Virus record (IMG/VR): IMGVR_UViG_2579778529_000009
Coordinates: 1 to 31,614 of that record
Length of the DNA stretch: 31,614 nt
Reading direction: 5' to 3' (one strand)
Origin: a virus
Lineage: Duplodnaviria > Heunggongvirae > Uroviricota > Caudoviricetes
Shown here: in pieces, positions 5,590-24,103 of the stretch
Layout: every line of letters starts with the position of its first letter
How positions within the stretch are numbered: position 1 is the first letter of the stretch
Made by a program: the position numbers and the translations under genes
The notes under the pieces: generated by a model
What the model saw: the letters and a program-made list of their open reading frames with translations, nothing else
Database searches by the model: none
Told to the model about the DNA's origin: nothing

Positions 5590-6164
5590 CGGGTCAGCCA
5601 TAACCTCAGTTGTTGTTTCAGTGCATACCCCAGCTGTTTCGGCATTTCCGCAGCAATGATGCGGTCGCGGGCATCTTCAAATGCCTGTGTCAGCTGTCCG
5701 GACAGAGGGATTTTCACCACATCAATGGGGTAACGATTTTTGCCATCAATACGCCGCATCACATGCCAGCGACCATTCGCCAGTTGCTGAATAAACGCAT
5801 CCCGGAAAAGATATTTACCCACCTTCAGCACGCTGCCACGGTACTGCAGTTTTCCACCACGCCGGGTCAGTCTGACCCGGGCGGTCCCCAGCTTAATGGC
5901 AGGCAGATTGCCCCGGTTAACGCGGATCCTGGCCGTCATTTTTCCTGACGGACTGGCTTTAAACACCCGGACACGCTGACGTACCAGTTTCAGGGGGATC
6001 CCTTTCACCTGGTTATCTCCCGCAACGGTATTCCCGGCAACCTGCCGGGTGGCAACCGAGACCGCTTTCTGTGCCACACGGTTTATCGCCCATGCGCTGG
6101 CCTGTGGCACCATACGGGTATCAAGGCTGTTCAGATTGCGGATGGCATTCTCAAGCCCCTTCAT
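5586..6164 (-). CDS. Z: Tail completion protein Z
   Basis: 192 aa in the lambda Z position between FII-like and U; family assignment from position and size. Confidence 0.7.
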   Translation of the reverse strand: MKGLENAIRNLNSLDTRMVPQASAWAINRVAQKAVSVATRQVAGNTVAGDNQVKGIPLKLVRQRVRVFKASPSGKMTARIRVNRGNLPAIKLGTARVRLTRRGGKLQYRGSVLKVGKYLFRDAFIQQLANGRWHVMRRIDGKNRYPIDVVKIPLSGQLTQAFEDARDRIIAAEMPKQLGYALKQQLRLWLTR

Positions 6165-6451: not shown

Positions 6452-8045
6452 TGAGTTTTACCGGCACTTCTTCTGCACTGGTTCCGGCATCTGCCCAGAC
6501 AACCCCGACCAGCGGATCAGAGCCGCTGTTAGTCAGCTGAACTTTTCCGGACTTCAGATAAACCTTCTTACCCGTTTTCATGTCATCCGTTTTCAGCTTA
6601 GGCAGCATAAACACACCTTCGGTCAGGCCGTCGCCTGTTTCACCCTGTGGAATATCGGTCAGCATATTCAGATCATCATTGATAATGGCCTGACGGGTGA
6701 TACTGAACAGCTCGCCATAGGTCGCCAGTGCAATAGTGGCCTGTTTATCTCCGGTGGTGACGTATTTATATTCCGCCCCTTCACGCACCTGACGCAGAGC
6801 ACTGAAGCCCCCCATACCCACACGATGGGCAATTTTAAAATCAGACAACTGACCTTTCCGCGTCCACTGTTCATAGGTTTCAGGGGCATCTTCCCAGCCC
6901 TGCAGAATGGCTTTGTTCGCAACATCCAGCAGAATATTACCGAAGTCAGACGTACTGTGTGTGAACGCCGCACCGACCATCTGCATCGGGTTATAACTGG
7001 AAACCCCAATACCCCGTTCAGTCAGTGACATACGGGCATATTCACGCAGGGTCATCCCGTTGTAGACATTATCACGTTCGGTTTTTTCAAATCCGGCACG
7101 CGCCATCAGCGCCTGGCGGATCCCGTCCCCCACAAAATTACCGTTTCCGGCATAAATATGAGCCGGGGTATTTTTATTGGATGGCGTGGACTCGCGCCCC
7201 ATCTCGTTCAACAGCTTTTCGCGGGCCTGTTCCAGCGAACATTCAGGATCGGCAAGACACTGAGCCTGCAGCGTCTGATAACGCCCGCCAAACATGGCAA
7301 ACAGATCATTAATACCGTTTACACGCGCTTTTTGCTCTGCCAGTACCTGCGCACGGATACTGTTTTCATCCACCACGGGTGCTGCTGCCTGCACTGGCGT
7401 CCGGGAGGCTGCAGGTTCATCATCCTGTACGCGTGGAGCACTGTTGCGTGGCGGAGTAATCATGTTTCGAATGGATTCCGGCATCTTTTTAAATTCCTCT
7501 GTACGTTTTGACTGAATACATGCCATTGCCTTAACGGCTGGCGTCACCTGATCAGCAAATCCCTGTGCCAGACATTCGGCACCGGACATCCAGGTCTCAT
7601 CCGCCAGCATGGCAGCAATTTCATCGGTGGTTTTCCCGGTTTTCTGTGCATAAGCGGGTAACAGAACCGCCTCAACCTTATCGAGCAGGTCGGCATAGGT
7701 GCGCATGTCCTCCGCATCACCGCCCGTAAAGCCAAATGGTTTATGAATCATCATGAAGGTGTTTTCCGGCATAATGACCGGGTTTCCCACCATCGCAATG
7801 ACCGACGCCATTGACGCCGCCACACCGTCGACATAAACGGTAATGGACGCACCATGTGTTTTCAGCGCATTAAAAATGGCGATGCCTTCAAAGACATCGC
7901 CACCCGGTGAATTAATATGGAGATTAATGTGGGTGATATCGCCCAGTGCATTCAGATCACTGATAAACTGCTTCGCTGTAACACCCCAGAAACCAATCTC
8001 GTCATAAATATAAATATCCGCGTCACTCTGGTGACCAGCCTGCAT
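6444..8045 (-). CDS. Prohead protease (ClpP/S14-like) - linker/scaffold - major capsid fusion protein
   Basis: N-terminal ClpP-like region (IYIYDEIGFWG...INSPGGDVFEG...ASMASVIAMVG...MMIHKP), Pro/Ala/Gln-rich linker, C-terminal capsid-like region; only head protein gene between portal and FII; start ATG 8045 chosen just after portal stop (track ORF extends to 8306 overlapping portal). Confidence 0.6.
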   Translation of the reverse strand: MQAGHQSDADIYIYDEIGFWGVTAKQFISDLNALGDITHINLHINSPGGDVFEGIAIFNALKTHGASITVYVDGVAASMASVIAMVGNPVIMPENTFMMIHKPFGFTGGDAEDMRTYADLLDKVEAVLLPAYAQKTGKTTDEIAAMLADETWMSGAECLAQGFADQVTPAVKAMACIQSKRTEEFKKMPESIRNMITPPRNSAPRVQDDEPAASRTPVQAAAPVVDENSIRAQVLAEQKARVNGINDLFAMFGGRYQTLQAQCLADPECSLEQAREKLLNEMGRESTPSNKNTPAHIYAGNGNFVGDGIRQALMARAGFEKTERDNVYNGMTLREYARMSLTERGIGVSSYNPMQMVGAAFTHSTSDFGNILLDVANKAILQGWEDAPETYEQWTRKGQLSDFKIAHRVGMGGFSALRQVREGAEYKYVTTGDKQATIALATYGELFSITRQAIINDDLNMLTDIPQGETGDGLTEGVFMLPKLKTDDMKTGKKVYLKSGKVQLTNSGSDPLVGVVWADAGTSAEEVPVKLNV

Positions 8046-9779: not shown

Positions 9780-11878
9780 AACCATCCTCCGGAAGTCAGC
9801 CAGGGGTTAACATCGTCAGTTACTGTTTTCTTCCGTTTTTGTTTTTTAACAGGCGTGGATACCGGTTCCGGTGAGGATGACGGTTCGGTACTGTCCTGGA
9901 CACACTCCAGCCAGGTTTCCCGGCTCGCCCACTCCGGTGCATCCGGCCAGCGGATCTTTTCGTATCCATGCAGAATGACCAGAGCCTCGGCATACACCAT
10001 CAGGTCAAAAGCTTCGTTGGCACCGCGACCAGGCTTACTCCATTTCCCGTCACTGCTCCGCTCTTCATACGTCAGTTCGTCGTAAAACCAGCTCCCCAGC
10101 CAGTCAGGGAAATGCACATAGCCGGGACCTGGCGAGTCACGCCATAACGCGTTATTCACCCGGTCTTTCAGTGCATCCGTCTGAAGAAGCCAGAGCGGCA
10201 CATCACCTGCGGCCTGCGCCCGTCGGCCCGTTCGTCCGGTGTTATCAGGGAATGTACGAGTGATCAGTTTTGCGCGCCGGATGCTGTCGCCCTTAAACAG
10301 GTAAATACGTTTACCAAGGCCATCACGACGGCAACGACGCCAGAATTTATAGGCATTATCAGTGACCCCGTCTTCACCGCCGGAGTCCACCGCCATTGCC
10401 ATCAGTCGCATTTGTTGAGAAGGATCGGAGGCCAGCGGCCAGCTTTTATGAAAAACATCCGTCAGCAGGACATCCCAGTCTTCCGGATAGCTGGCCGGAT
10501 CAATTCGCTGGCTCTCCCCGTCGCTGTCACCGCGCAATGACTGCGTGATGTTGTAACGATCAATAATCCAGCGTTCGCCACGGCTGCCATAGCCCGTTAC
10601 CTGAACCACAAAACGGCGATGACGTCCCGCCTGCACATCCACTGTCGCCACAAGGAAATTAACGCCATCCGGCACACTGCGGGAAGGAACTGGCTCTGCC
10701 CGCTGCTCAAGCAGTTCACTTTTTCGTTGCTCCATGCTGGCGCGGGGAAGATAAGGTAATCCCCAGTCGGTATTGATAACCGTCTTGAGTGTTTCTTCAC
10801 TTCCGGTTGTCTCGTATTCCTGTTCTGCAGTAAGCAGTTTGTAAACGAGTTGCGAGAGTGTCTGGTAAGCAGCTGCCGGACCCTCCATCCAGAATGACGC
10901 AATACGTGAGCGTCGGGGATCACCATAACGACTGCCATCCGCATTGATGGATTCACCATCCCGCAACCAGACCCCACGTCCGTTCAGCTCACGTTTTTGT
11001 TCAGGCATAATCCGTCCTGAACAGGAAGGGCACTGAATATAAGCCGCCTCACTTGCCAGCACGGGATCGGCAATATCACGGAAACCAGCAACCACATCGC
11101 CGCAGGGCTGAAAATACTCACCACAGTGTGGACAGGGCCAGTACCAGCGACGGCGATCACCACGGTTATAGAGCGACAGGATCCCCGTGGTTGGTGGAGC
11201 CTCATGCGGTGAAGTCCGTCGCCATTTCACATCCTTCACATCCCTGCCGGGGGAACTCTCCACCAGCGTCATACCGCTGGACATAAATGTGGTGGTACGT
11301 TTTGAGGCAAGAGAGAAAGCATCCCCCTCGCCATCAATATCTTCCGGAAAACGGTCATAATCCGTCAGCGCGACGCATTTATAATCTGATGAGGACATGA
11401 TATTGACTGACGGCCAGCCGATTTTCAGGTAGTTACCAGCAAGGAATGTTCTGTCATAAACGTTGTTGTCATTTTTGTTCGGACTCAGGCGACTGACCAC
11501 TTCCGGGCTGACGCGAAACGTTCTGGCAAGTCGTTTTTTGGAGTGTTCGCGGGCTTTTTCCTCCGTCATCTGAATGATCAGCATATCAGCAGGATCGCAA
11601 ATCACGTTGTAAATCACCCAGCCGTCAATCAGGCCGATAGTCTTGCCAGTTCGTGCCGGGCCAACAAATATCACTGCGTCGTATTCACGCGAGGCCAGGC
11701 AGTTCATCGGCTCAATAACATACGGTGCCACCAGCGGATCCCACGGGACTGAGTTCCCTGCCCCCATGGGCACCCGCATATACTGAGCAACGGCATCAGC
11801 AACCCGCATTCGTCTCGGTGCGCGAAGGATATAACCTGAATCGGTTCGTGCTGCCTTTGCGGTTTCCTGATTCAGCAT
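9776..11878 (-). CDS. Terminase large subunit (gpA family)
   Basis: 700 aa; Walker A-like VGPARTGKT near N-terminus; position after small terminase; start overlaps Nu1-like stop. Confidence 0.9.
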   Translation of the reverse strand: MLNQETAKAARTDSGYILRAPRRMRVADAVAQYMRVPMGAGNSVPWDPLVAPYVIEPMNCLASREYDAVIFVGPARTGKTIGLIDGWVIYNVICDPADMLIIQMTEEKAREHSKKRLARTFRVSPEVVSRLSPNKNDNNVYDRTFLAGNYLKIGWPSVNIMSSSDYKCVALTDYDRFPEDIDGEGDAFSLASKRTTTFMSSGMTLVESSPGRDVKDVKWRRTSPHEAPPTTGILSLYNRGDRRRWYWPCPHCGEYFQPCGDVVAGFRDIADPVLASEAAYIQCPSCSGRIMPEQKRELNGRGVWLRDGESINADGSRYGDPRRSRIASFWMEGPAAAYQTLSQLVYKLLTAEQEYETTGSEETLKTVINTDWGLPYLPRASMEQRKSELLEQRAEPVPSRSVPDGVNFLVATVDVQAGRHRRFVVQVTGYGSRGERWIIDRYNITQSLRGDSDGESQRIDPASYPEDWDVLLTDVFHKSWPLASDPSQQMRLMAMAVDSGGEDGVTDNAYKFWRRCRRDGLGKRIYLFKGDSIRRAKLITRTFPDNTGRTGRRAQAAGDVPLWLLQTDALKDRVNNALWRDSPGPGYVHFPDWLGSWFYDELTYEERSSDGKWSKPGRGANEAFDLMVYAEALVILHGYEKIRWPDAPEWASRETWLECVQDSTEPSSSPEPVSTPVKKQKRKKTVTDDVNPWLTSGGWL

Positions 11879-12372
11879 TACTCCTCCTGCTGTAATTCCT
11901 CCTCATCATCCGCACCTGCTTCAGTCACCCGCAGGGCTATCTGATCGCGCAGATCATCAATAATGGACTGAACACGGCTCACAGCGGCAGGCTGCAGACC
12001 GCAGTCACGTTCAAGAATATCCGGTAATGTCTCCAGCACCTGCACGACCGCTTTTGCCCAGATGGCAAACTCCCGTCTGACATCACTGGCCGGAATGAGT
12101 TGTGCCGTTTCCTGTTCGAACTTAAGACGCTCACGTTCAGACTGATACCAGGCTTTGCGCTCATGCGCGTCCATTTCGCCTTCTGCAACCGGCGGAGGTA
12201 ATGCCAGAAATGCCGACACAATATCAACCACCCGATAAAGCTTGAGGTTGCTTTCATGCCCCCCTGCAACGGGTAGATTTTGCAGCCTTGCCGCAGCAGT
12301 CTGGCGATGTACACCTGACAGTGCCGCCAGTTGACTGATATTCAGCGTCAGATTTTTTAACTCTCGATCCAT
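11878..12372 (-). CDS. Terminase small subunit (Nu1-like, N-terminal winged HTH)
   Basis: ATG 12372 (track ORF begins at TTG 12408); N-terminal NISQLAALSGVHRQTAAARL HTH-like; acidic C-terminus; directly upstream of large subunit. Confidence 0.7.
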   Translation of the reverse strand: MDRELKNLTLNISQLAALSGVHRQTAAARLQNLPVAGGHESNLKLYRVVDIVSAFLALPPPVAEGEMDAHERKAWYQSERERLKFEQETAQLIPASDVRREFAIWAKAVVQVLETLPDILERDCGLQPAAVSRVQSIIDDLRDQIALRVTEAGADDEEELQQEE

Positions 12373-12735
12373 ACCCGCTCCAGAATGTTTTAAACATGCA
12401 TCTTGCAAACAACTTTAGGCAAACGGTGTCAGTGATGAACAAAAAACAATCAAGATCGACACCATGAAAATAAAACAGCTGTAATATCAATTAATTATAG
12501 TGGTGGTGATGACGGATAAAATTTCAAAAACTAGCCTTTTTCCGCGACGCTCCCGCCCCGTGGCAAGGCCACCCCACCGGGAGGACCCATGAAAAATGAG
12601 AGAAATTATCATTTATGCTCAATTAAACATCAGCATTATCGCAGCCCCTCACTGAAGGACTGCTGTAATGCTGATTGTTCAACATCAAAAAACCCAATCT
12701 GTTGCAAGTTATAAAAGCAACAAACGACATTGCGC

Positions 12736-12752
12736 GTTAAGATTTTCTTAAT
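12736..12752 (+). promoter_or_regulatory. PmrA(BasR)-box-like direct repeat GTTAAG-N5-CTTAAT upstream of ais-like gene
   Basis: Direct repeat of YTTAAK-like half-sites separated by 5 nt, about 55-70 nt upstream of ATG 12805; matches the PmrA box architecture known for chromosomal ais/pmrG. Confidence 0.35.
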
Positions 12753-12804
12753 ATTTAAGAAATATATTTTTTAATCTCATTTATTTTTGCAAAAGACTTT
12801 TCAT

Positions 12805-13380
12805 ATGCAGCGTCGAGAAATAAAGAAAATTACTTATTTAATCACTTTGATTTTAACTACTCTTTTGTTTGTTTATTTTTTAAGAACACCCACCACAATC
12901 AATATGAAACAGGCGCATAAAATAAATCAACAACACCAGACAATTTTCCTTATCCGTCACGGTGAACGATGTGACAGAAGCAAAAATGCATGTCTCTCAA
13001 GCAATAAAGGAATTACCGTCAATGGTGCCATTAAAGCTCATGATTATGGAAAAATATTTAGCAATACTTTCCCGTCATTCAGCCTTTACTCCACGGATAC
13101 CATACGGACAATGCAGACAGCCTGTTTTTTCTCTGGAGGAAAAGCAGCCTCCCGGATACCGTTGGCTGCAACATGCGGACTTGATGCTGCAAAGGACATA
13201 CTCAAATTGTCATCCGATAATAAAACTACCGTTATATTCACCCATAATCATTGCCTGACACAAATAGCAAAAAAAATGAAATGGTGGAAGTTAAAGCCAG
13301 AATATCTTGAAACACTGGTTCTTCATATCGAAAACAATCGTCTCATTCTTGACGGAAAACTGACTCACGATAAAGCGTAA
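12805..13380 (+). CDS. Ais/PmrG-like histidine phosphatase (LPS core heptose(II)-phosphate phosphatase homologue) with N-terminal signal/anchor; lysogenic-conversion cargo
   Basis: RHGERCDRS (RHG catalytic motif of histidine phosphatase superfamily), CLSSNKGITV, LYSTDTIRT, VIFTHNHCL, KPEYLETLVLHIE...LDG all parallel recalled E. coli Ais; hydrophobic N-terminus; AT-rich; opposite strand to late genes in the bor-equivalent slot. Confidence 0.75.
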   Translation: MQRREIKKITYLITLILTTLLFVYFLRTPTTINMKQAHKINQQHQTIFLIRHGERCDRSKNACLSSNKGITVNGAIKAHDYGKIFSNTFPSFSLYSTDTIRTMQTACFFSGGKAASRIPLAATCGLDAAKDILKLSSDNKTTVIFTHNHCLTQIAKKMKWWKLKPEYLETLVLHIENNRLILDGKLTHDKA

Positions 13381-13416
13381 CAATCATTCAAAGAGTCAAC
13401 ATATTTTCTGCATTAA

Positions 13417-13445
13417 CCCCGAACAGTTCCTCTGCCGGGGTTTTG
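13417..13445 (+). terminator. Intrinsic terminator after ais-like gene
   Basis: CCCCG-N14-CGGGG hairpin followed by TTTTG; between convergent ais-like gene and endolysin. Confidence 0.5.
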
Positions 13446-13451
13446 TATTAG

Positions 13452-13829
13452 TTATCGCCTCAACTGAAAATGCGGTCCGTCTTTCAGGCTGGTCCACTCC
13501 CCGCCCCATTCGATGGCAGTTCCCAGCTCTGCGGCAGCCTGCTTAAATGCCTGCGCGATTTTCTCGTACAGAGGCCAGTCCCATGACACCTGGCTGCCAA
13601 CCCAGGCCACAACATCCACCGCATCACCGGTCAGGTGGCGGCTGTTCATGGTCTGGCTCTTGCCTTCTGCAACCAGCTGTTTCTGGCGTTCTTTCGTGCG
13701 CAGGCCTTCCGTAATACCGAAATCAACCTCCGTCAGCTCCAGCGCACGGCGAACGACAGCAACCAGCTGTGGTTTAACGCCCTCCAGATTTTTCTCGCTC
13801 CGACGACTGAATCTGAATTTACCCGACAT
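13452..13829 (-). CDS. Endolysin, peptidase M15 (zinc D-Ala-D-Ala carboxypeptidase-like) family
   Basis: SRHLTGDAVDV (H-x6-D) and C-terminal GPHFQL His typical of M15 endolysins; GAGGTG upstream of ATG 13829; follows holin genes. Confidence 0.8.
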   Translation of the reverse strand: MSGKFRFSRRSEKNLEGVKPQLVAVVRRALELTEVDFGITEGLRTKERQKQLVAEGKSQTMNSRHLTGDAVDVVAWVGSQVSWDWPLYEKIAQAFKQAAAELGTAIEWGGEWTSLKDGPHFQLRR

Positions 13830-13831
13830 AT

Positions 13832-14107
13832 TCACCTCAACAATGGAAAGATTTTTGTGACGTTCCCGCGTGCGCGTATCACCAGCACGCAGAACAGCAG
13901 ATTAAAAAACACTTCCAGCCAGCCCGTTGCTAACGGGCGACCACACAGATAGCTGAGGGGCGCAAAGGCATACAGCAGCATCAGCAGCCAGGCCAGCCAT
14001 GACATCAGCGGTTTGTGCGTGGCATCTTTTCGGCGATAAAAAAAGAACGTCAGCACGATAACCGTGCATAACGCCACATTCAGCAATCCGGGAAGGTTAC
14101 TTAACAT
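13832..14107 (-). CDS. Small membrane protein in lysis cassette (holin/antiholin-like)
   Basis: 91 aa, 2-3 hydrophobic helices, between holin candidate and endolysin; start overlaps upstream gene. Confidence 0.45.
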   Translation of the reverse strand: MLSNLPGLLNVALCTVIVLTFFFYRRKDATHKPLMSWLAWLLMLLYAFAPLSYLCGRPLATGWLEVFFNLLFCVLVIRARGNVTKIFPLLR

Positions 14108-14489
14108 TGCCGCCTCCTCCGCCCCTCAGGCGGGAGAACAGGCCGGACACCAGTGATGCGATATCCTGCTGGTGGATGAATGACAGAATCTTCACTGACA
14201 CCACCGATACCAGCACCGCACACAGCGCATCTGCCGATGTACCGTCATACCCTGTTTTTGATGTAATCCAGGCTGACAGTACACGTGCTCCCAGCACGCC
14301 GACGATAAACGACACCAGAAAATGCGCCGCCACACGCCAGGCGGAAATCTTCTGCGGCACAGTTGCCACAAACAAAGCCCCCGCGAACGCACCAAACACA
14401 ATCCCGAAATCCGTTCCGGTGAACAGCCCGAATACCGTCGCCCCTCCGAGCGCAGCCGCCGTGCCGGAACCGGATAAGGGTTCAGACAT
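14097..14489 (-). CDS. Putative holin
   Basis: 130 aa with about 3 predicted TM segments and charged C-terminus; first gene of lysis cassette; AGGAG upstream. Confidence 0.5.
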   Translation of the reverse strand: MSEPLSGSGTAAALGGATVFGLFTGTDFGIVFGAFAGALFVATVPQKISAWRVAAHFLVSFIVGVLGARVLSAWITSKTGYDGTSADALCAVLVSVVSVKILSFIHQQDIASLVSGLFSRLRGGGGGNVK

Positions 14490-14685: not shown

Positions 14686-14947
14686 AAGATGAATTTCCAG
14701 GTTTTGCTTAATACGTGATTAATCTCAACGTTTTTTATAGATGTTAACAACATCGGAATGATGCATCACCGGCCCTGTCAGGAAATACAAAATCTCCACC
14801 GATAATGCACCATTACGCTGTTGTAAAAAGACAGCACTGGACTGTAACCGATATCACGTATTACAGAACAGGATGTGGATAAAGATTCAGGAAAACATCC
14901 CACATATAATATGTCAGTGCCCAAAACAACTTGGTATCGTCTACTGC

Positions 14948-15022
<75 letters not shown>

Positions 15023-15439: not shown

Positions 15440-16183
15440 TTATTCTTGAGCGGAGCCAGAACTCATCTCACTGAATGCAGCCATCCTGTAACCTTCCGGG
15501 GTGACCCCAAAATAACGCCTGAATACACTGATAAAATAAGATGTATTATTATAGCCACACTGCACAGCGATTCTGTTGATGGCACAGCTATATTGATGCA
15601 ACAGCATTGCTGCCATTCTCATTCTCTCCGTAAGCAACAACTCACTGAAACATGTGCCTTCTTCTTTCAGTCTTTTTTTTAACAAACTTTCACTCATACA
15701 TAACCGTGATGACACATCTCGCAGAGTCCAGTTTGCTGCAATGTCTGTATGAAACAACGCACCAAGCCTGCCGCTGATAGTACTGATACACGCGGTCATA
15801 AACGACGAAAACATTTTATCTGATGAAAAAAACGCCAGACACGAAAAGGAAAGCATTTCCGCTAAATTGTCCGTATGAATCTTTTCCTCATAAAGATAAT
15901 CAATCAGGATGCCCATCAATTCTGGCCTGGGAAAACTCATGCAAAGATATCGTGGCATTTTCCGGACTAAAACAACATCCTGTTTTACCCCACTACGCAA
16001 CAGGTAACGGCTAATTGTCGATTCACTGAGACTTATACGCCGAAAACATTCAGAAAAGGGCAATAACGGTCCAGCCCCTCCCCTGACAAGAAGTGCACTA
16101 CCACTTTCCAGAGAGAGTACTTTTCCTTCGAAGAGCACAACAAACGGGGAATGAACAAAAATAACAGAACAGGCCTCATTCAT
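15440..16183 (-). CDS. AraC-family transcriptional regulator (GadX/YdeO/AppY-like), prophage cargo
   Basis: C-terminal AraC-type double HTH (WTLRDVSSRLCMSESLLKKRLKEE...INRIAVQCGYNNTSYFISVFRRYFGVTP); ATG 16183 with AGGGA upstream (track ORF extends to 16291); AT-rich. Confidence 0.8.
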   Translation of the reverse strand: MNEACSVIFVHSPFVVLFEGKVLSLESGSALLVRGGAGPLLPFSECFRRISLSESTISRYLLRSGVKQDVVLVRKMPRYLCMSFPRPELMGILIDYLYEEKIHTDNLAEMLSFSCLAFFSSDKMFSSFMTACISTISGRLGALFHTDIAANWTLRDVSSRLCMSESLLKKRLKEEGTCFSELLLTERMRMAAMLLHQYSCAINRIAVQCGYNNTSYFISVFRRYFGVTPEGYRMAAFSEMSSGSAQE

Positions 16184-16460
16184 ATCAATATCCCTGACAT
16201 TACTGGTCGCAAGATAAGTATATATCACTTTACAAAAATGCAAGCCGTGAGCCCCGAATTCACGACCACCAGCGTGTTTACTGTACTGCACCAGGTTTAC
16301 AGGTACAAAAAACCGCTCGACGGCGGGTTTAAGCTGTGTGGCGAAGTAACCACTCTTAACAGATTAAGATAAAATTTGCGGACCGCGGTAATTTTTTTTG
16401 CTAAATTAAAGCCATATAAAAAAAGATCCATAAGAAATTATTAGTATACTAAGGTTTAAC

Positions 16461-17402
16461 ATGGCTACTATTGCGCAATCAAAGAAACAAAAAAAACTTA
16501 AAATTGGTTTTTACACCAGCAGTTCTGGGACTATCCGCAGCCATTCAGTTGCTAAGCAAGCAATTGAAAATCTGTATAATACTTGCGTAACCGTTACGAA
16601 TAATCATTTTGATACCATCTATAGAAATAAAAAGTTAAAAATAGCTTTTATAAATAAAGATACAAAAGCTAAATATTTCTTCGGCTACATGTCATGCTCA
16701 CGAGAAGAGTATCTCCTTCCTTATATTGGTGATGAATACTGGAATGAGCACAACATACCACTAGATGATAAAAAATACATAGTCGAAAGAACCTATTTTT
16801 TATATTATTACGATAGTGATATTTTAATATTAACTCAAAATCATCTTGGGCCGAAAGAATCGGATTTAGCTTATCTGCTTTACAGCCAGAGTGGTAATCC
16901 TGGAAATAACTTTTCATTCCAAGCCATCTGGAAAAAAGAGAGCGTCAAAGAGCTACTTGAAACAGGAAGTACTTTGAGAAGTTGTGATATTGTCCTGGCT
17001 GCTCCCAGGAACTTTGATGCAACAAATTACCAGCTAAATAGTTCATTTTCTAAGGAACTGGTAAATATGATGGTAGGGCTGGGTGGAACACGTCTCAAGT
17101 TAAATCTAAGGGGACGTGCATCAGGGAGAGTAAAAGTCAAAGGTTATTTATCAGATCTCGTTAAGGATGGTATTAAAGAACTCCTTGAAAAAATGCCGGG
17201 AATTGTAAAAAAAGCGGCAGTAACACAGCCCAAAAATACCGTTGAACAAAGTCTTCTTGATCAGGTACTCATTTCAGAAAAAAACATATATACCGTTAAT
17301 GGTTATGGCACTGATAGTGATGTTCTGCAAGCCATGATTTCTGCTAAAATTGATAACAATGAATACCTTAAGCAATACGATATCAGCAAAAAGAAGGTAT
17401 AG
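16461..17402 (+). CDS. Hypothetical 313-aa soluble protein; candidate RexA-like sensor component of a two-gene abortive-infection/exclusion module
   Basis: AT-rich; AAGG RBS 6 nt upstream; N-terminal KIGFYTSSSG and internal LGPKESDLAYLL resemble recalled lambda RexA motifs (GFYATYRS, GPTTSDLTDFL); 3-nt gap to downstream membrane gene. Confidence 0.5.
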   Translation: MATIAQSKKQKKLKIGFYTSSSGTIRSHSVAKQAIENLYNTCVTVTNNHFDTIYRNKKLKIAFINKDTKAKYFFGYMSCSREEYLLPYIGDEYWNEHNIPLDDKKYIVERTYFLYYYDSDILILTQNHLGPKESDLAYLLYSQSGNPGNNFSFQAIWKKESVKELLETGSTLRSCDIVLAAPRNFDATNYQLNSSFSKELVNMMVGLGGTRLKLNLRGRASGRVKVKGYLSDLVKDGIKELLEKMPGIVKKAAVTQPKNTVEQSLLDQVLISEKNIYTVNGYGTDSDVLQAMISAKIDNNEYLKQYDISKKKV

Positions 17403-17405
17403 GAT

Positions 17406-17849
17406 ATGTTATTGAAATACTTAAGAAACCTGATTGTAAGTGTTTTTTGCACCTTGTTCCTACTGAGGTATATCCCTCAGATGGGGCATGCTGACATACT
17501 TACAGCCTCCGGGGTTATTTCAACTGTATCCGGTATTTTATTTGGTTTTATTTTAGCCACAATATCAATTTTTAGTGCTGCTAGCGAAAACTCAAATGGA
17601 ATAATAAAAGCATTAAAAAACAACAACATACTTCAATTTATTATTGTAAATCTATTAACCGCAGGTGCATCTTTAATTACGGCATGCGTTATTGCTTTGA
17701 TAGCAATGTTTGCCAATGAAAAGACATTGTTACATGGAGAAAAAATAGAATTTATTTTAATTATCGAATCTTTATCTCTTCTTATCATTTCAGTAATAAC
17801 TTTTGCCTTTACATGGAGAAAAGTAAACTGGATACTCCCCCACATTTAA
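17406..17849 (+). CDS. 147-aa four-helix membrane protein; candidate RexB-like effector
   Basis: Four hydrophobic segments (about 8-20, 33-58, 75-102, 117-137); LFLLRYIPQ resembles recalled lambda RexB LLFRHYIPG; size matches RexB (144 aa); translationally coupled to upstream gene. Confidence 0.5.
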   Translation: MLLKYLRNLIVSVFCTLFLLRYIPQMGHADILTASGVISTVSGILFGFILATISIFSAASENSNGIIKALKNNNILQFIIVNLLTAGASLITACVIALIAMFANEKTLLHGEKIEFILIIESLSLLIISVITFAFTWRKVNWILPHI

Positions 17850-23501: not shown

Positions 23502-24103
23502 GATGGCAGCCTCTTTGGTGATTTTTAATAACTCACCACCAAGGCTTTCCACGACCTTATTGGTGGTGAGACGTACAGGGGTGGAAATACCGGTCACCAA
23601 AGAACCCGGCCCAACCGAAGTTGGCCCTGCACGCCCCACCATAATTTGGGCGTAATGCTGCTCATGACACAAAAAAACCGCAAGAGCGCGGTTGTGCGCT
23701 TTGGTGAATTCCGGGTTTCCACGCCCGGCACCCGCTTTATAAGGTGCCTGAACAGTGTAACGTCCCGGAATGGCAGAATCAATGTGCTGGTGGTCCTTCA
23801 CACTCAACAAAATCACGCCTGAATTTCCACAAAGGACTAAAGCATTCATGCGGGTAGTCTTTGCGAAGATAGATAACGCGCTGTGTTTCTGGCTCCCAAC
23901 GAATAACATGAACATAAAGTCCTCTTCCGTCACGAAACCAGCGGTTAAGTTCCTGCACAACTCGCCCCCCACAGTCAGGTAAAGTTCTCTGTGGTTACTT
24001 ACAGCCAGGTGATTTGGTAATCTGCATTCATGCCGTAACAACAGGTGTGCAGCGACACTGACCACCAGCTGTTGCGACAAACGGTTATTTGCCGTTAAAC
24101 TGT

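Follow-up and report, generated by a model that had tools for sequence, protein, structure and literature searches.

An ais-like gene in a lambdoid prophage

The 31,614 bp of DNA analysed here (the window; IMG/VR virus record IMGVR_UViG_2579778529_000009, positions 1 to 31,614) is a lambdoid prophage, and over the stretch tested it is 100% identical to a prophage in the porcine enterotoxigenic Escherichia coli (ETEC) strain ETEC1738. Between its lysis cassette and a terS-like gene lies a gene that we refer to as ais-like (Table 1), transcribed from the strand opposite to its neighbours and with a GC content of 0.30–0.41, compared with 0.51–0.59 in the phage genes on both flanks. An initial annotation, made from the sequence alone, had described an AT-rich gene antisense to the late genes and placed between the lysis and packaging genes, and the GC profile and map of open reading frames (ORFs) bear this out; it had also reported a 191-residue product with a hydrophobic N-terminus and the motif RHGERCDRS, all of which are present in the ORF translation. 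An alternative in-frame start, a TTG at 12787, is less likely than the ATG. The same coding sequence is annotated in the ETEC1738 prophage (RefSeq WP_032192250.1) under the name “LPS core heptose(II)-phosphate phosphatase”, LPS being lipopolysaccharide, and as RefSeq already holds the family assignment the identification itself is not new. We have little doubt that the gene is a moron coding for an exported phosphatase of the Ais family.

An Ais/PmrG-family phosphatase

The protein scores well above the cutoff of the NCBIfam model PRK15416, which describes the Ais/PmrG subfamily under the same heptose(II)-phosphate phosphatase name (205.2 bits; cutoff 142), and aligns with E. coli K-12 Ais at 45% identity over 160 residues (E = 7e-47), the alignment that had been proposed as a check on the initial annotation. 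The match to Pfam His_Phos_1 (PF00300) is marginal (22.9 bits; cutoff 21.7) and is confined to residues 47–112 in the N-terminal half. In an alignment of 19 family members drawn from phages, plasmids, chromosomal Ais and IncI1 TraG, residues R51, H52, E54, R55, C56, D57, R101, H147, N148, H149, C150 and H174 are invariant. The phosphate pocket expected of branch 1 histidine phosphatases is present (R51-H52-G53, R101 and H147/H149), and there is no loss of the catalytic histidine and arginine residues (R51, H52, R101, H147 and H149) on which the initial annotation depended. There are three conserved cysteines, C56, C63 and C150, in keeping with export.

An AlphaFold model built from an alignment of 17 sequences (mean pLDDT confidence score 92.6) consists of one N-terminal helix spanning residues 2–26 and a compact alpha/beta domain. 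The best Foldseek matches to the model are phosphoserine phosphatase, SixA, PGAM5 and PhoE, with a probability of 1.00 and template-modelling (TM) scores of 0.5–0.6. A sequence search of solved structures found no close relative and only a remote match to fructose-2,6-bisphosphatase. The ratio of nonsynonymous to synonymous substitution rates (dN/dS) is 0.37 relative to an 85%-identical sister allele, and the gene is under purifying selection. The protein is best regarded as a paralogue within the Ais/PmrG family, for which we infer a heptose(II) substrate by analogy.

Like its chromosomal counterparts, E. coli Ais and Salmonella PmrG, this protein has a putative N-terminal export signal, although the signals differ in kind. 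In the prophage protein a charged segment (MQRREIKK) is followed by 18 hydrophobic residues (9–26) with no AXA-type cleavage motif after them, whereas the signal of chromosomal Ais is cleavable, with the sequence ...GTHA/AWSS at the equivalent place. The helix probably acts as an uncleaved signal anchor or as an export signal, and because the hydrophobic segment is long and lacks an AXA site the protein may remain anchored in the inner membrane; the catalytic domain may then be periplasmic, an orientation that we infer.

A predicted BasR-dependent promoter

Upstream of the gene the initial annotation had noted a direct repeat, GTTAAG-N5-CTTAAT, and this is found as GTTAAGATTTTCTTAAT (Table 1), matching the PmrA/BasR box consensus YTTAAK-N5-YTTAAK at 11 of 12 positions, i.e. 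with one mismatch. Verified Salmonella PmrA boxes consist of the half-sites CTTAAG and XTTAAT set 5 bp apart (PMC3973317; the box is also defined in PMC10927774), and the box overlaps the -35 element (PMC4660055). In the window, a predicted -10 hexamer follows the repeat after 10 bp. There is no -35 element at the proper spacing, the sequence there (AGATTT at 12740–12745, by eye) matching TTGACA at none of six positions, and a generic scan for sigma-70 promoters detected no complete promoter ahead of the gene, as expected of an activator-dependent promoter. Transcription is predicted to start near 12775.

The probability of a one-mismatch site occurring by chance in the 150 nt upstream of the gene (sense strand, local composition) is 0.015, which is weakly significant alone, and adding the requirement for a -10-like hexamer 10 bp further on lowers it to 0.0012. 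The repeat owes its significance mainly to its conservation in relatives. We compared the promoter regions of eight diverged alleles, anchored on their start codons: those of the window, L106, L109/L110, L010, L116, L012/13/24, L014/L005 and the plasmid L003 (L numbers denote the loci used for comparison). In all eight a box with no more than one mismatch (e.g. CTTAAGGATTCCTTAAG) lies 64–71 nt before the start codon, and is followed after exactly 10 bp by a -10-like hexamer (TATATT, CATAAT, TATAAT or AATAAT). Conservation is concentrated in these elements, with an information content of 1.78 bits in half-site 1, 1.57 bits in half-site 2 and 1.52 bits in the hexamer, compared with 0.49 bits in the 40 nt upstream flank and 0.55 bits in the 25 nt downstream flank.

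The arrangement closely resembles that of known BasR targets. The same layout of box, 10 bp and hexamer is seen at arnB (pbgP) in 14 Enterobacteriaceae (in K-12, CTTAAGGTTAAGTTAAT-attctatcct-TAAAAT), and at K-12 eptA (pmrC) and waaH (yibD), whose boxes are at -69 and -71 from the start codon respectively. The ais-like promoter shares with these three the orientation of the box, the 10-bp gap to the -10 hexamer, the lack of a -35 element and a distance of about 65–71 nt from box to start codon; it differs in that the first half-site of its putative BasR site starts with G in the window, and in its location on phage DNA beside a probable cos site. A scoring matrix trained only on chromosomal arnB sites ranks the ais-upstream site as the best in the locus for 9 of the 16 loci scanned (9 of the 11 phage-derived ones), but because this matrix is over-fitted to arnB spacers we rely instead on conservation across alleles. 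From its layout and conservation we consider it likely that the ais-like gene is controlled by BasR.

The initial annotation had described the box as retained, and in this it was mistaken. Among 18 Enterobacteriaceae loci, none has a sense-oriented box upstream of chromosomal ais, and the only good box in the ais–arnB intergenic region is that of arnB, which lies about 200 bp upstream of ais and points away from it; its palindromic CTTAAG core lets it be read as a one-mismatch match toward ais, without a properly spaced -10. Chromosomal ais has only this box in the reverse direction, whereas in the mobile clade the gene is served by a promoter of its own, predicted to be of the arnB type. Among the relatives examined, a PmrA-type promoter is found only in the phage clade, in one IncF allele and, more weakly, in a chromosomal homologue from Dryocola clanedunensis (L027, ~5910–5942). 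This homologue is 49% identical, and its weaker box (GATAATGTTCCCTTAAG, with 2 mismatches) has the same 10-bp gap to an AATAAT hexamer and stands 70 nt ahead of the start codon. The Dryocola box raises the possibility that this type of promoter may predate transfer of the gene to phages. Elsewhere in the window, a one-mismatch box at 14707 was considered as a second site and rejected, as it has neither a properly spaced -10 nor a downstream gene.

Downstream of the gene is a GC-rich hairpin (13415–13442) with a T-run extending to 13449, and the enclosing 86-nt stretch (13375–13460) folds at -19.6 kcal/mol (z = -3.0). In this orientation it would halt plus-strand transcription before antisense entry into the lysis genes. 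A simple terminator scan did not call it, the loop exceeding the scan's rule. L106 and L109 both keep the hairpin, as does the L112 prophage, which has no ais-like gene. The initial annotation had credited the gene with its own terminator; the hairpin and T-run are real, but their presence in L112 means that they are not private to the moron.

Moron status and distribution

Comparison with related prophages shows that the promoter region and the gene form a discrete cassette. The L112 prophage has the same holin–holin–M15 endolysin cassette without the ais-like gene, and L113 has the same terS and terminase, also without it. At the left edge, homology with the ais-less L113 stops at about 12590 and homology with L106 starts at about 12630; at the right edge, homology with the ais-less L112 picks up again at 13415. 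The L106 prophage, whose packaging module is of another type, carries an allele that is 85% identical. Diverged alleles (55–85% protein identity) occupy the same slot on the opposite strand in other prophages. At least four types of packaging module adjoin the slot (DUF1441/GpA, Nu1/GpA, HNH with a P27-type terminase, and ParB/Terminase_2), and among the carriers it adjoins two types of lysis cassette. With its discrete boundaries, atypical GC content, presence or absence among related prophages and predicted transcription apart from the phage operons, the cassette has the characters of a phage moron, in keeping with the lysogenic-conversion role that the initial annotation had put forward. 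In L112, two tiny ORFs (37 and 51 residues) stand at the position of the cassette.

The full region is present in only 24–29 of 5426 complete E. coli genomes, nearly all of them porcine ETEC or edema-disease strains, and one or other of the flanking modules is present in more than 2000 of the same genomes. Sister alleles are carried by the Stx1 phage GER2 and a 933W-like prophage of O104:H4. Among the 5426 complete genomes, 43 have the GER2-type allele; for two members of its cluster the contig counts are 521 and at least 1000, and some members are annotated from Shigella sonnei. The GER2 record itself (MG710528.1; L005) annotates only a 90-residue fragment (7229–7501), and the full ORF (6887–7501, 193–204 residues) is intact. 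A homologue was found in only one of 50,697 deposited phage genomes, no PHROGs family matches the protein and PADLOC gives no match, such that ais-like is a prophage gene largely missed by phage catalogues. The literature searched, which omits most subscription journals, contained no paper dealing with ais homologues on phages or with their promoter, and we regard this as a credible lysogenic-conversion gene that has been annotated automatically and is apparently unstudied.

Table 1. Features of the ais-like locus and its flanks in the window.
Feature	Position	Strand	Basis or comment
PmrA/BasR-box-like direct repeat	12736–12752	+	GTTAAG (12736–12741), spacer ATTTT, CTTAAT (12747–12752)
Predicted -10 hexamer TATATT	12763–12768	+	10 bp after the box; -10-like hexamer conserved at the same spacing in relatives
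ais-like coding sequence	12805–13380	+	ATG start, 191 residues, stop codon within coordinates; Ais/PmrG-family histidine phosphatase; WP_032192250.1
N-terminal hydrophobic helix, residues 9–26	12829–12882	+	Hydropathy peak ~2.0; modelled helix over residues 2–26
RHGERCDRS, residues 51–59	12955–12981	+	Catalytic Arg-His-Gly of histidine phosphatase branch 1, then family-specific ERCDRS
THNHC, residues 146–150	13240–13254	+	Second conserved active-site His motif; H147, N148, H149 and C150 invariant
Hairpin and T-run	13415–13449	+	AACCCCG...CGGGGTT, then TTTTGTATT; terminator-like; between convergent ais-like and endolysin genes
Moron cassette (promoter region and ais-like gene)	~12630–13415	+	Approximate extent, ~0.8 kb; homology breakpoints and GC content
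terS-like gene, start of packaging module	11878–12408	-	Pfam DUF1441 and annotation
Late-operon lysis cassette	13452–14489	-	M15 endolysin and two holins; Pfam and RefSeq annotation
M15 endolysin	13452–13835	-	Pfam Peptidase_M15_4
Two holins	13832–14107, 14097–14489	-	Pfam Phage_holin_3_7 and Phage_holin_8

Relatives in other genetic contexts

The closest functional comparison is with E. coli Ais and Salmonella PmrG, which belong to the same subfamily and have identical active-site motifs. Their chromosomal genes stand beside arn/pmrHFIJKLM, in contrast to the prophage gene in its position between endolysin and terS. As a phage cassette it resembles lambda bor- and lom-type morons, gtrABC and oac in being an independent unit in the slot between lysis and packaging genes, with atypical GC content, patchy presence and a predicted change to the envelope; it differs from them in that the predicted target is an inner-core phosphate rather than the O-antigen, and in its apparent wiring to a host two-component system.

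Relatives are also encoded by about 1440 plasmids. The bulk of these are IncI1 TraG proteins, 43% identical to the ais-like protein and encoded between traF and traH; another clade, which adjoins a PefC/AfrB-type fimbrial operon on Citrobacter rodentium pCROD1, belongs to a group of AfrS-like proteins on fimbrial plasmids that are 49–54% identical. Both groups have the same invariant catalytic residues, but they differ from the prophage gene in lacking an upstream PmrA box and in lying inside transfer or fimbrial operons. Ais-like enzymes are, as judged from these sequence relationships, recurrent cargo of enterobacterial mobile elements.

Two further observations concern these plasmid loci. 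TraG of the R64-type transfer region (e.g. L120, 5001–5567; about 1400 IncI1 plasmids), known as a ‘predicted phosphatase’, is an Ais-family histidine phosphatase with all of the catalytic residues. In a transposon screen it was largely dispensable for transfer (PMC4288162). As LPS cores are recognised by the thin pili of IncI1 plasmids, TraG might act on LPS. On pCROD1 (L004, 5881–7507) and on an IncF plasmid (L003, 6932–13230), the Ais-like gene is accompanied by genes for an EAL-domain protein and helix-turn-helix regulators, which hints at a recurrent set of regulatory and enzymatic genes around Pef/AF-R1-type fimbriae.

Alternative interpretations

Taken as a whole, we favour the interpretation that the cassette is a moron encoding an exported Ais-family phosphatase, controlled by BasR and directed at heptose(II) phosphate, and we think it probably correct. 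Several observations weigh against it. The protein falls short of the NCBIfam PmrG equivalog model (111.8 bits; cutoff 170), and a neighbour-joining tree puts it in a clade apart from chromosomal Ais/PmrG, so that its substrate may differ from that of PmrG. At the promoter, half-site 1 begins with G, not C or T, in both the window allele and its closest relative; there are four one-mismatch sites across the window with 1.99 expected, which is not significant alone; and with the arnB-trained matrix the window site alone ranks third of 63,164 positions. The phage allele L114 lacks half-site 1, and no box is found upstream of the pCROD1-type fimbrial-plasmid and IncI1 relatives. The Shine-Dalgarno sequence is weak in the window allele (AAGA, compared with AAGGA in relatives, by eye). 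Finally, E. coli already has a chromosomal ais, and the gain from a second copy is unexplained.

The enzyme and the moron could be as described and yet the target be something other than heptose(II) phosphate, with the activity serving the element itself, for example by changing a phage receptor or aiding assembly of a surface organelle. Candidate targets include heptose(I) phosphate or pyrophosphoethanolamine, the lipid A 1-diphosphate, or a phosphoprotein or phosphosugar. Such a difference would be consistent with the low equivalog score and distinct clade, with a signal-anchor-like N-terminus where Ais has a cleavable signal, and with the very different mobile contexts of the relatives, i.e. 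traG in the IncI1 transfer region and the fimbrial operon of pCROD1. However, the active-site motifs (RH[GA]ERCDRS and THNHCL) are identical to those of Ais/PmrG, and a PmrA-type promoter, with the co-regulation with LPS-modifying genes that this implies, fits an LPS target. We regard another target as somewhat unlikely, and consider the arguments for and against heptose(II) phosphate as the specific substrate, which is proposed by analogy, to be evenly balanced. The promoter can be questioned separately, as the window site is mismatched and only marginally unusual alone, TTAA-type repeats arise easily in AT-rich DNA, and shared descent partly explains conservation among the alleles; the gene could then be expressed constitutively, silenced by H-NS, or governed by a different regulator of the OmpR/PhoB type, for example QseB, a paralogue of PmrA. 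Against this, conservation is concentrated in the half-sites and -10 hexamer while the flanks are scrambled, and three independent known BasR targets share the spacing of the site, its orientation and its distance from the start codon. With no -35 element an activator is needed, and a promoter independent of BasR seems to us quite improbable.

It is far harder to accept that the protein is not an enzyme at all. A truncated, 99%-identical copy in UMNF18 is deposited, by a single depositor, as ‘transcriptional activator AfrS’, and an AraC-family regulator is encoded in the same prophage (15440–16291), such that the two might together regulate adhesin or virulence genes; work by Cantey et al. in 1999 reportedly found afrR (AraC-type) and afrS to be both required for AF/R1 pilus expression. 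The open-access literature yielded no text on afrS. The ais-like protein has no DNA-binding domain, and it combines an N-terminal membrane or export helix with a complete histidine-phosphatase active site that is invariant in the fimbria-linked relatives too. The AraC-family gene, which is GadX/GadW-like (38–39% identity), lies on the far side of the lysis cassette at a distance of about 2 kb, most phage alleles have no AraC neighbour, and no fimbrial operon is adjacent to the window gene; a purely regulatory role is thus highly implausible. Nor is there much to suggest a decaying, non-functional passenger. Truncated copies do occur (150 residues in UMNF18 and 139 in L026), and the ribosome-binding site of the window allele is weak, but the ORF is intact with every invariant residue in place, dN/dS is 0.37, the promoter is conserved and the gene recurs in many prophage backgrounds, which makes decay just as hard to believe.

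Other features of the prophage

A GC-rich segment at about 12540–12590 (CCGCGACGCTCCCGCCCCGTGGCAAGGCCACCCCACCGGGAGGACCC), just upstream of terS, is kept in ais-less prophages with the same terS (e.g. L113) and is probably cos; if so, the moron would occupy the extreme end of the packaged genome. No annotated Rz/Rz1-type spanin was noticed between endolysin and terS (in 12409–12800 and the 13452–14489 region). A tRNA gene (14951–15022, minus strand; tRNA-Gly in the RefSeq annotation of the identical ETEC1738 prophage) lies between the lysis cassette and a second AT-rich island, itself flanked by the Q antiterminator on one side and the lysis genes on the other. This island codes for the AraC-family regulator (15440–16291, minus strand), a DUF6731 protein (16461–17402, plus strand) and a 147-residue protein without an assigned family (17406–17849, plus strand). 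None of the three matches PADLOC. The regulator resembles the prophage-borne Psr/PatE-type regulators of acid resistance and virulence in enterohaemorrhagic E. coli. Rfam models identify a C4 antisense RNA (23559–23646, minus strand; 83.6 bits) beside the Hfq-binding small RNA isrK (23671–23747, minus strand; 67 bits), a pair that constitutes a P1/Gifsy-type immunity or anti-repressor control module.

Proposed function and implications

In a lysogen the late operon is silent, and the cassette's own promoter would act independently of it. Under Fe3+, Al3+ or mild acid, BasS/BasR (PmrB/PmrA) would become active and phospho-BasR would be recruited to the box, which at roughly -39 to -23 would replace a -35 element, 10 bp upstream of the -10. 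The ais-like gene would then be switched on alongside arnB, eptA and waaH, and the membrane-anchored or exported enzyme would strip phosphate from the LPS inner core at the periplasmic face of the inner membrane. PmrG is PmrA-activated, and by analogy with Salmonella PmrG the likeliest target would be the heptose(II) phosphate, whose removal would lessen the negative charge of the surface. PmrG is stated to dephosphorylate heptose II (as cited in PMC8129183).

If this is correct, a temperate phage hands its host an extra LPS-core-remodelling enzyme that answers to the envelope-stress signal of the host's PmrAB (BasSR) system, the circuit that drives tolerance of polymyxin, colistin and metals. 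Carriers of the window allele are nearly all porcine ETEC or edema-disease strains, and colistin has been used against infections with Enterobacteriaceae in food animals (PMC7360418). Since the E. coli chromosome carries an ais of its own, the effect in practice may be slight.

A broader proposal is that Ais-like phosphatases are a general tool with which enterobacterial mobile elements retune the pattern of LPS inner-core phosphates for their own benefit, although we consider this unlikely. The phage version, in the host PmrAB regulon, might then provide conditional receptor masking or superinfection exclusion together with protection against cationic peptides and metals; the IncI1 version would be TraG, and the Pef/AF-R1-type fimbrial version would be ‘AfrS’, whose reported activator role would be an indirect effect of a periplasmic enzyme. 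The comparisons tie three poorly understood mobile-element genes (the phage ais-like gene, IncI1 traG and afrS) to one enzyme family, and the prophage cassette would offer a testable case in which a moron has gained a promoter responding to a host two-component system.

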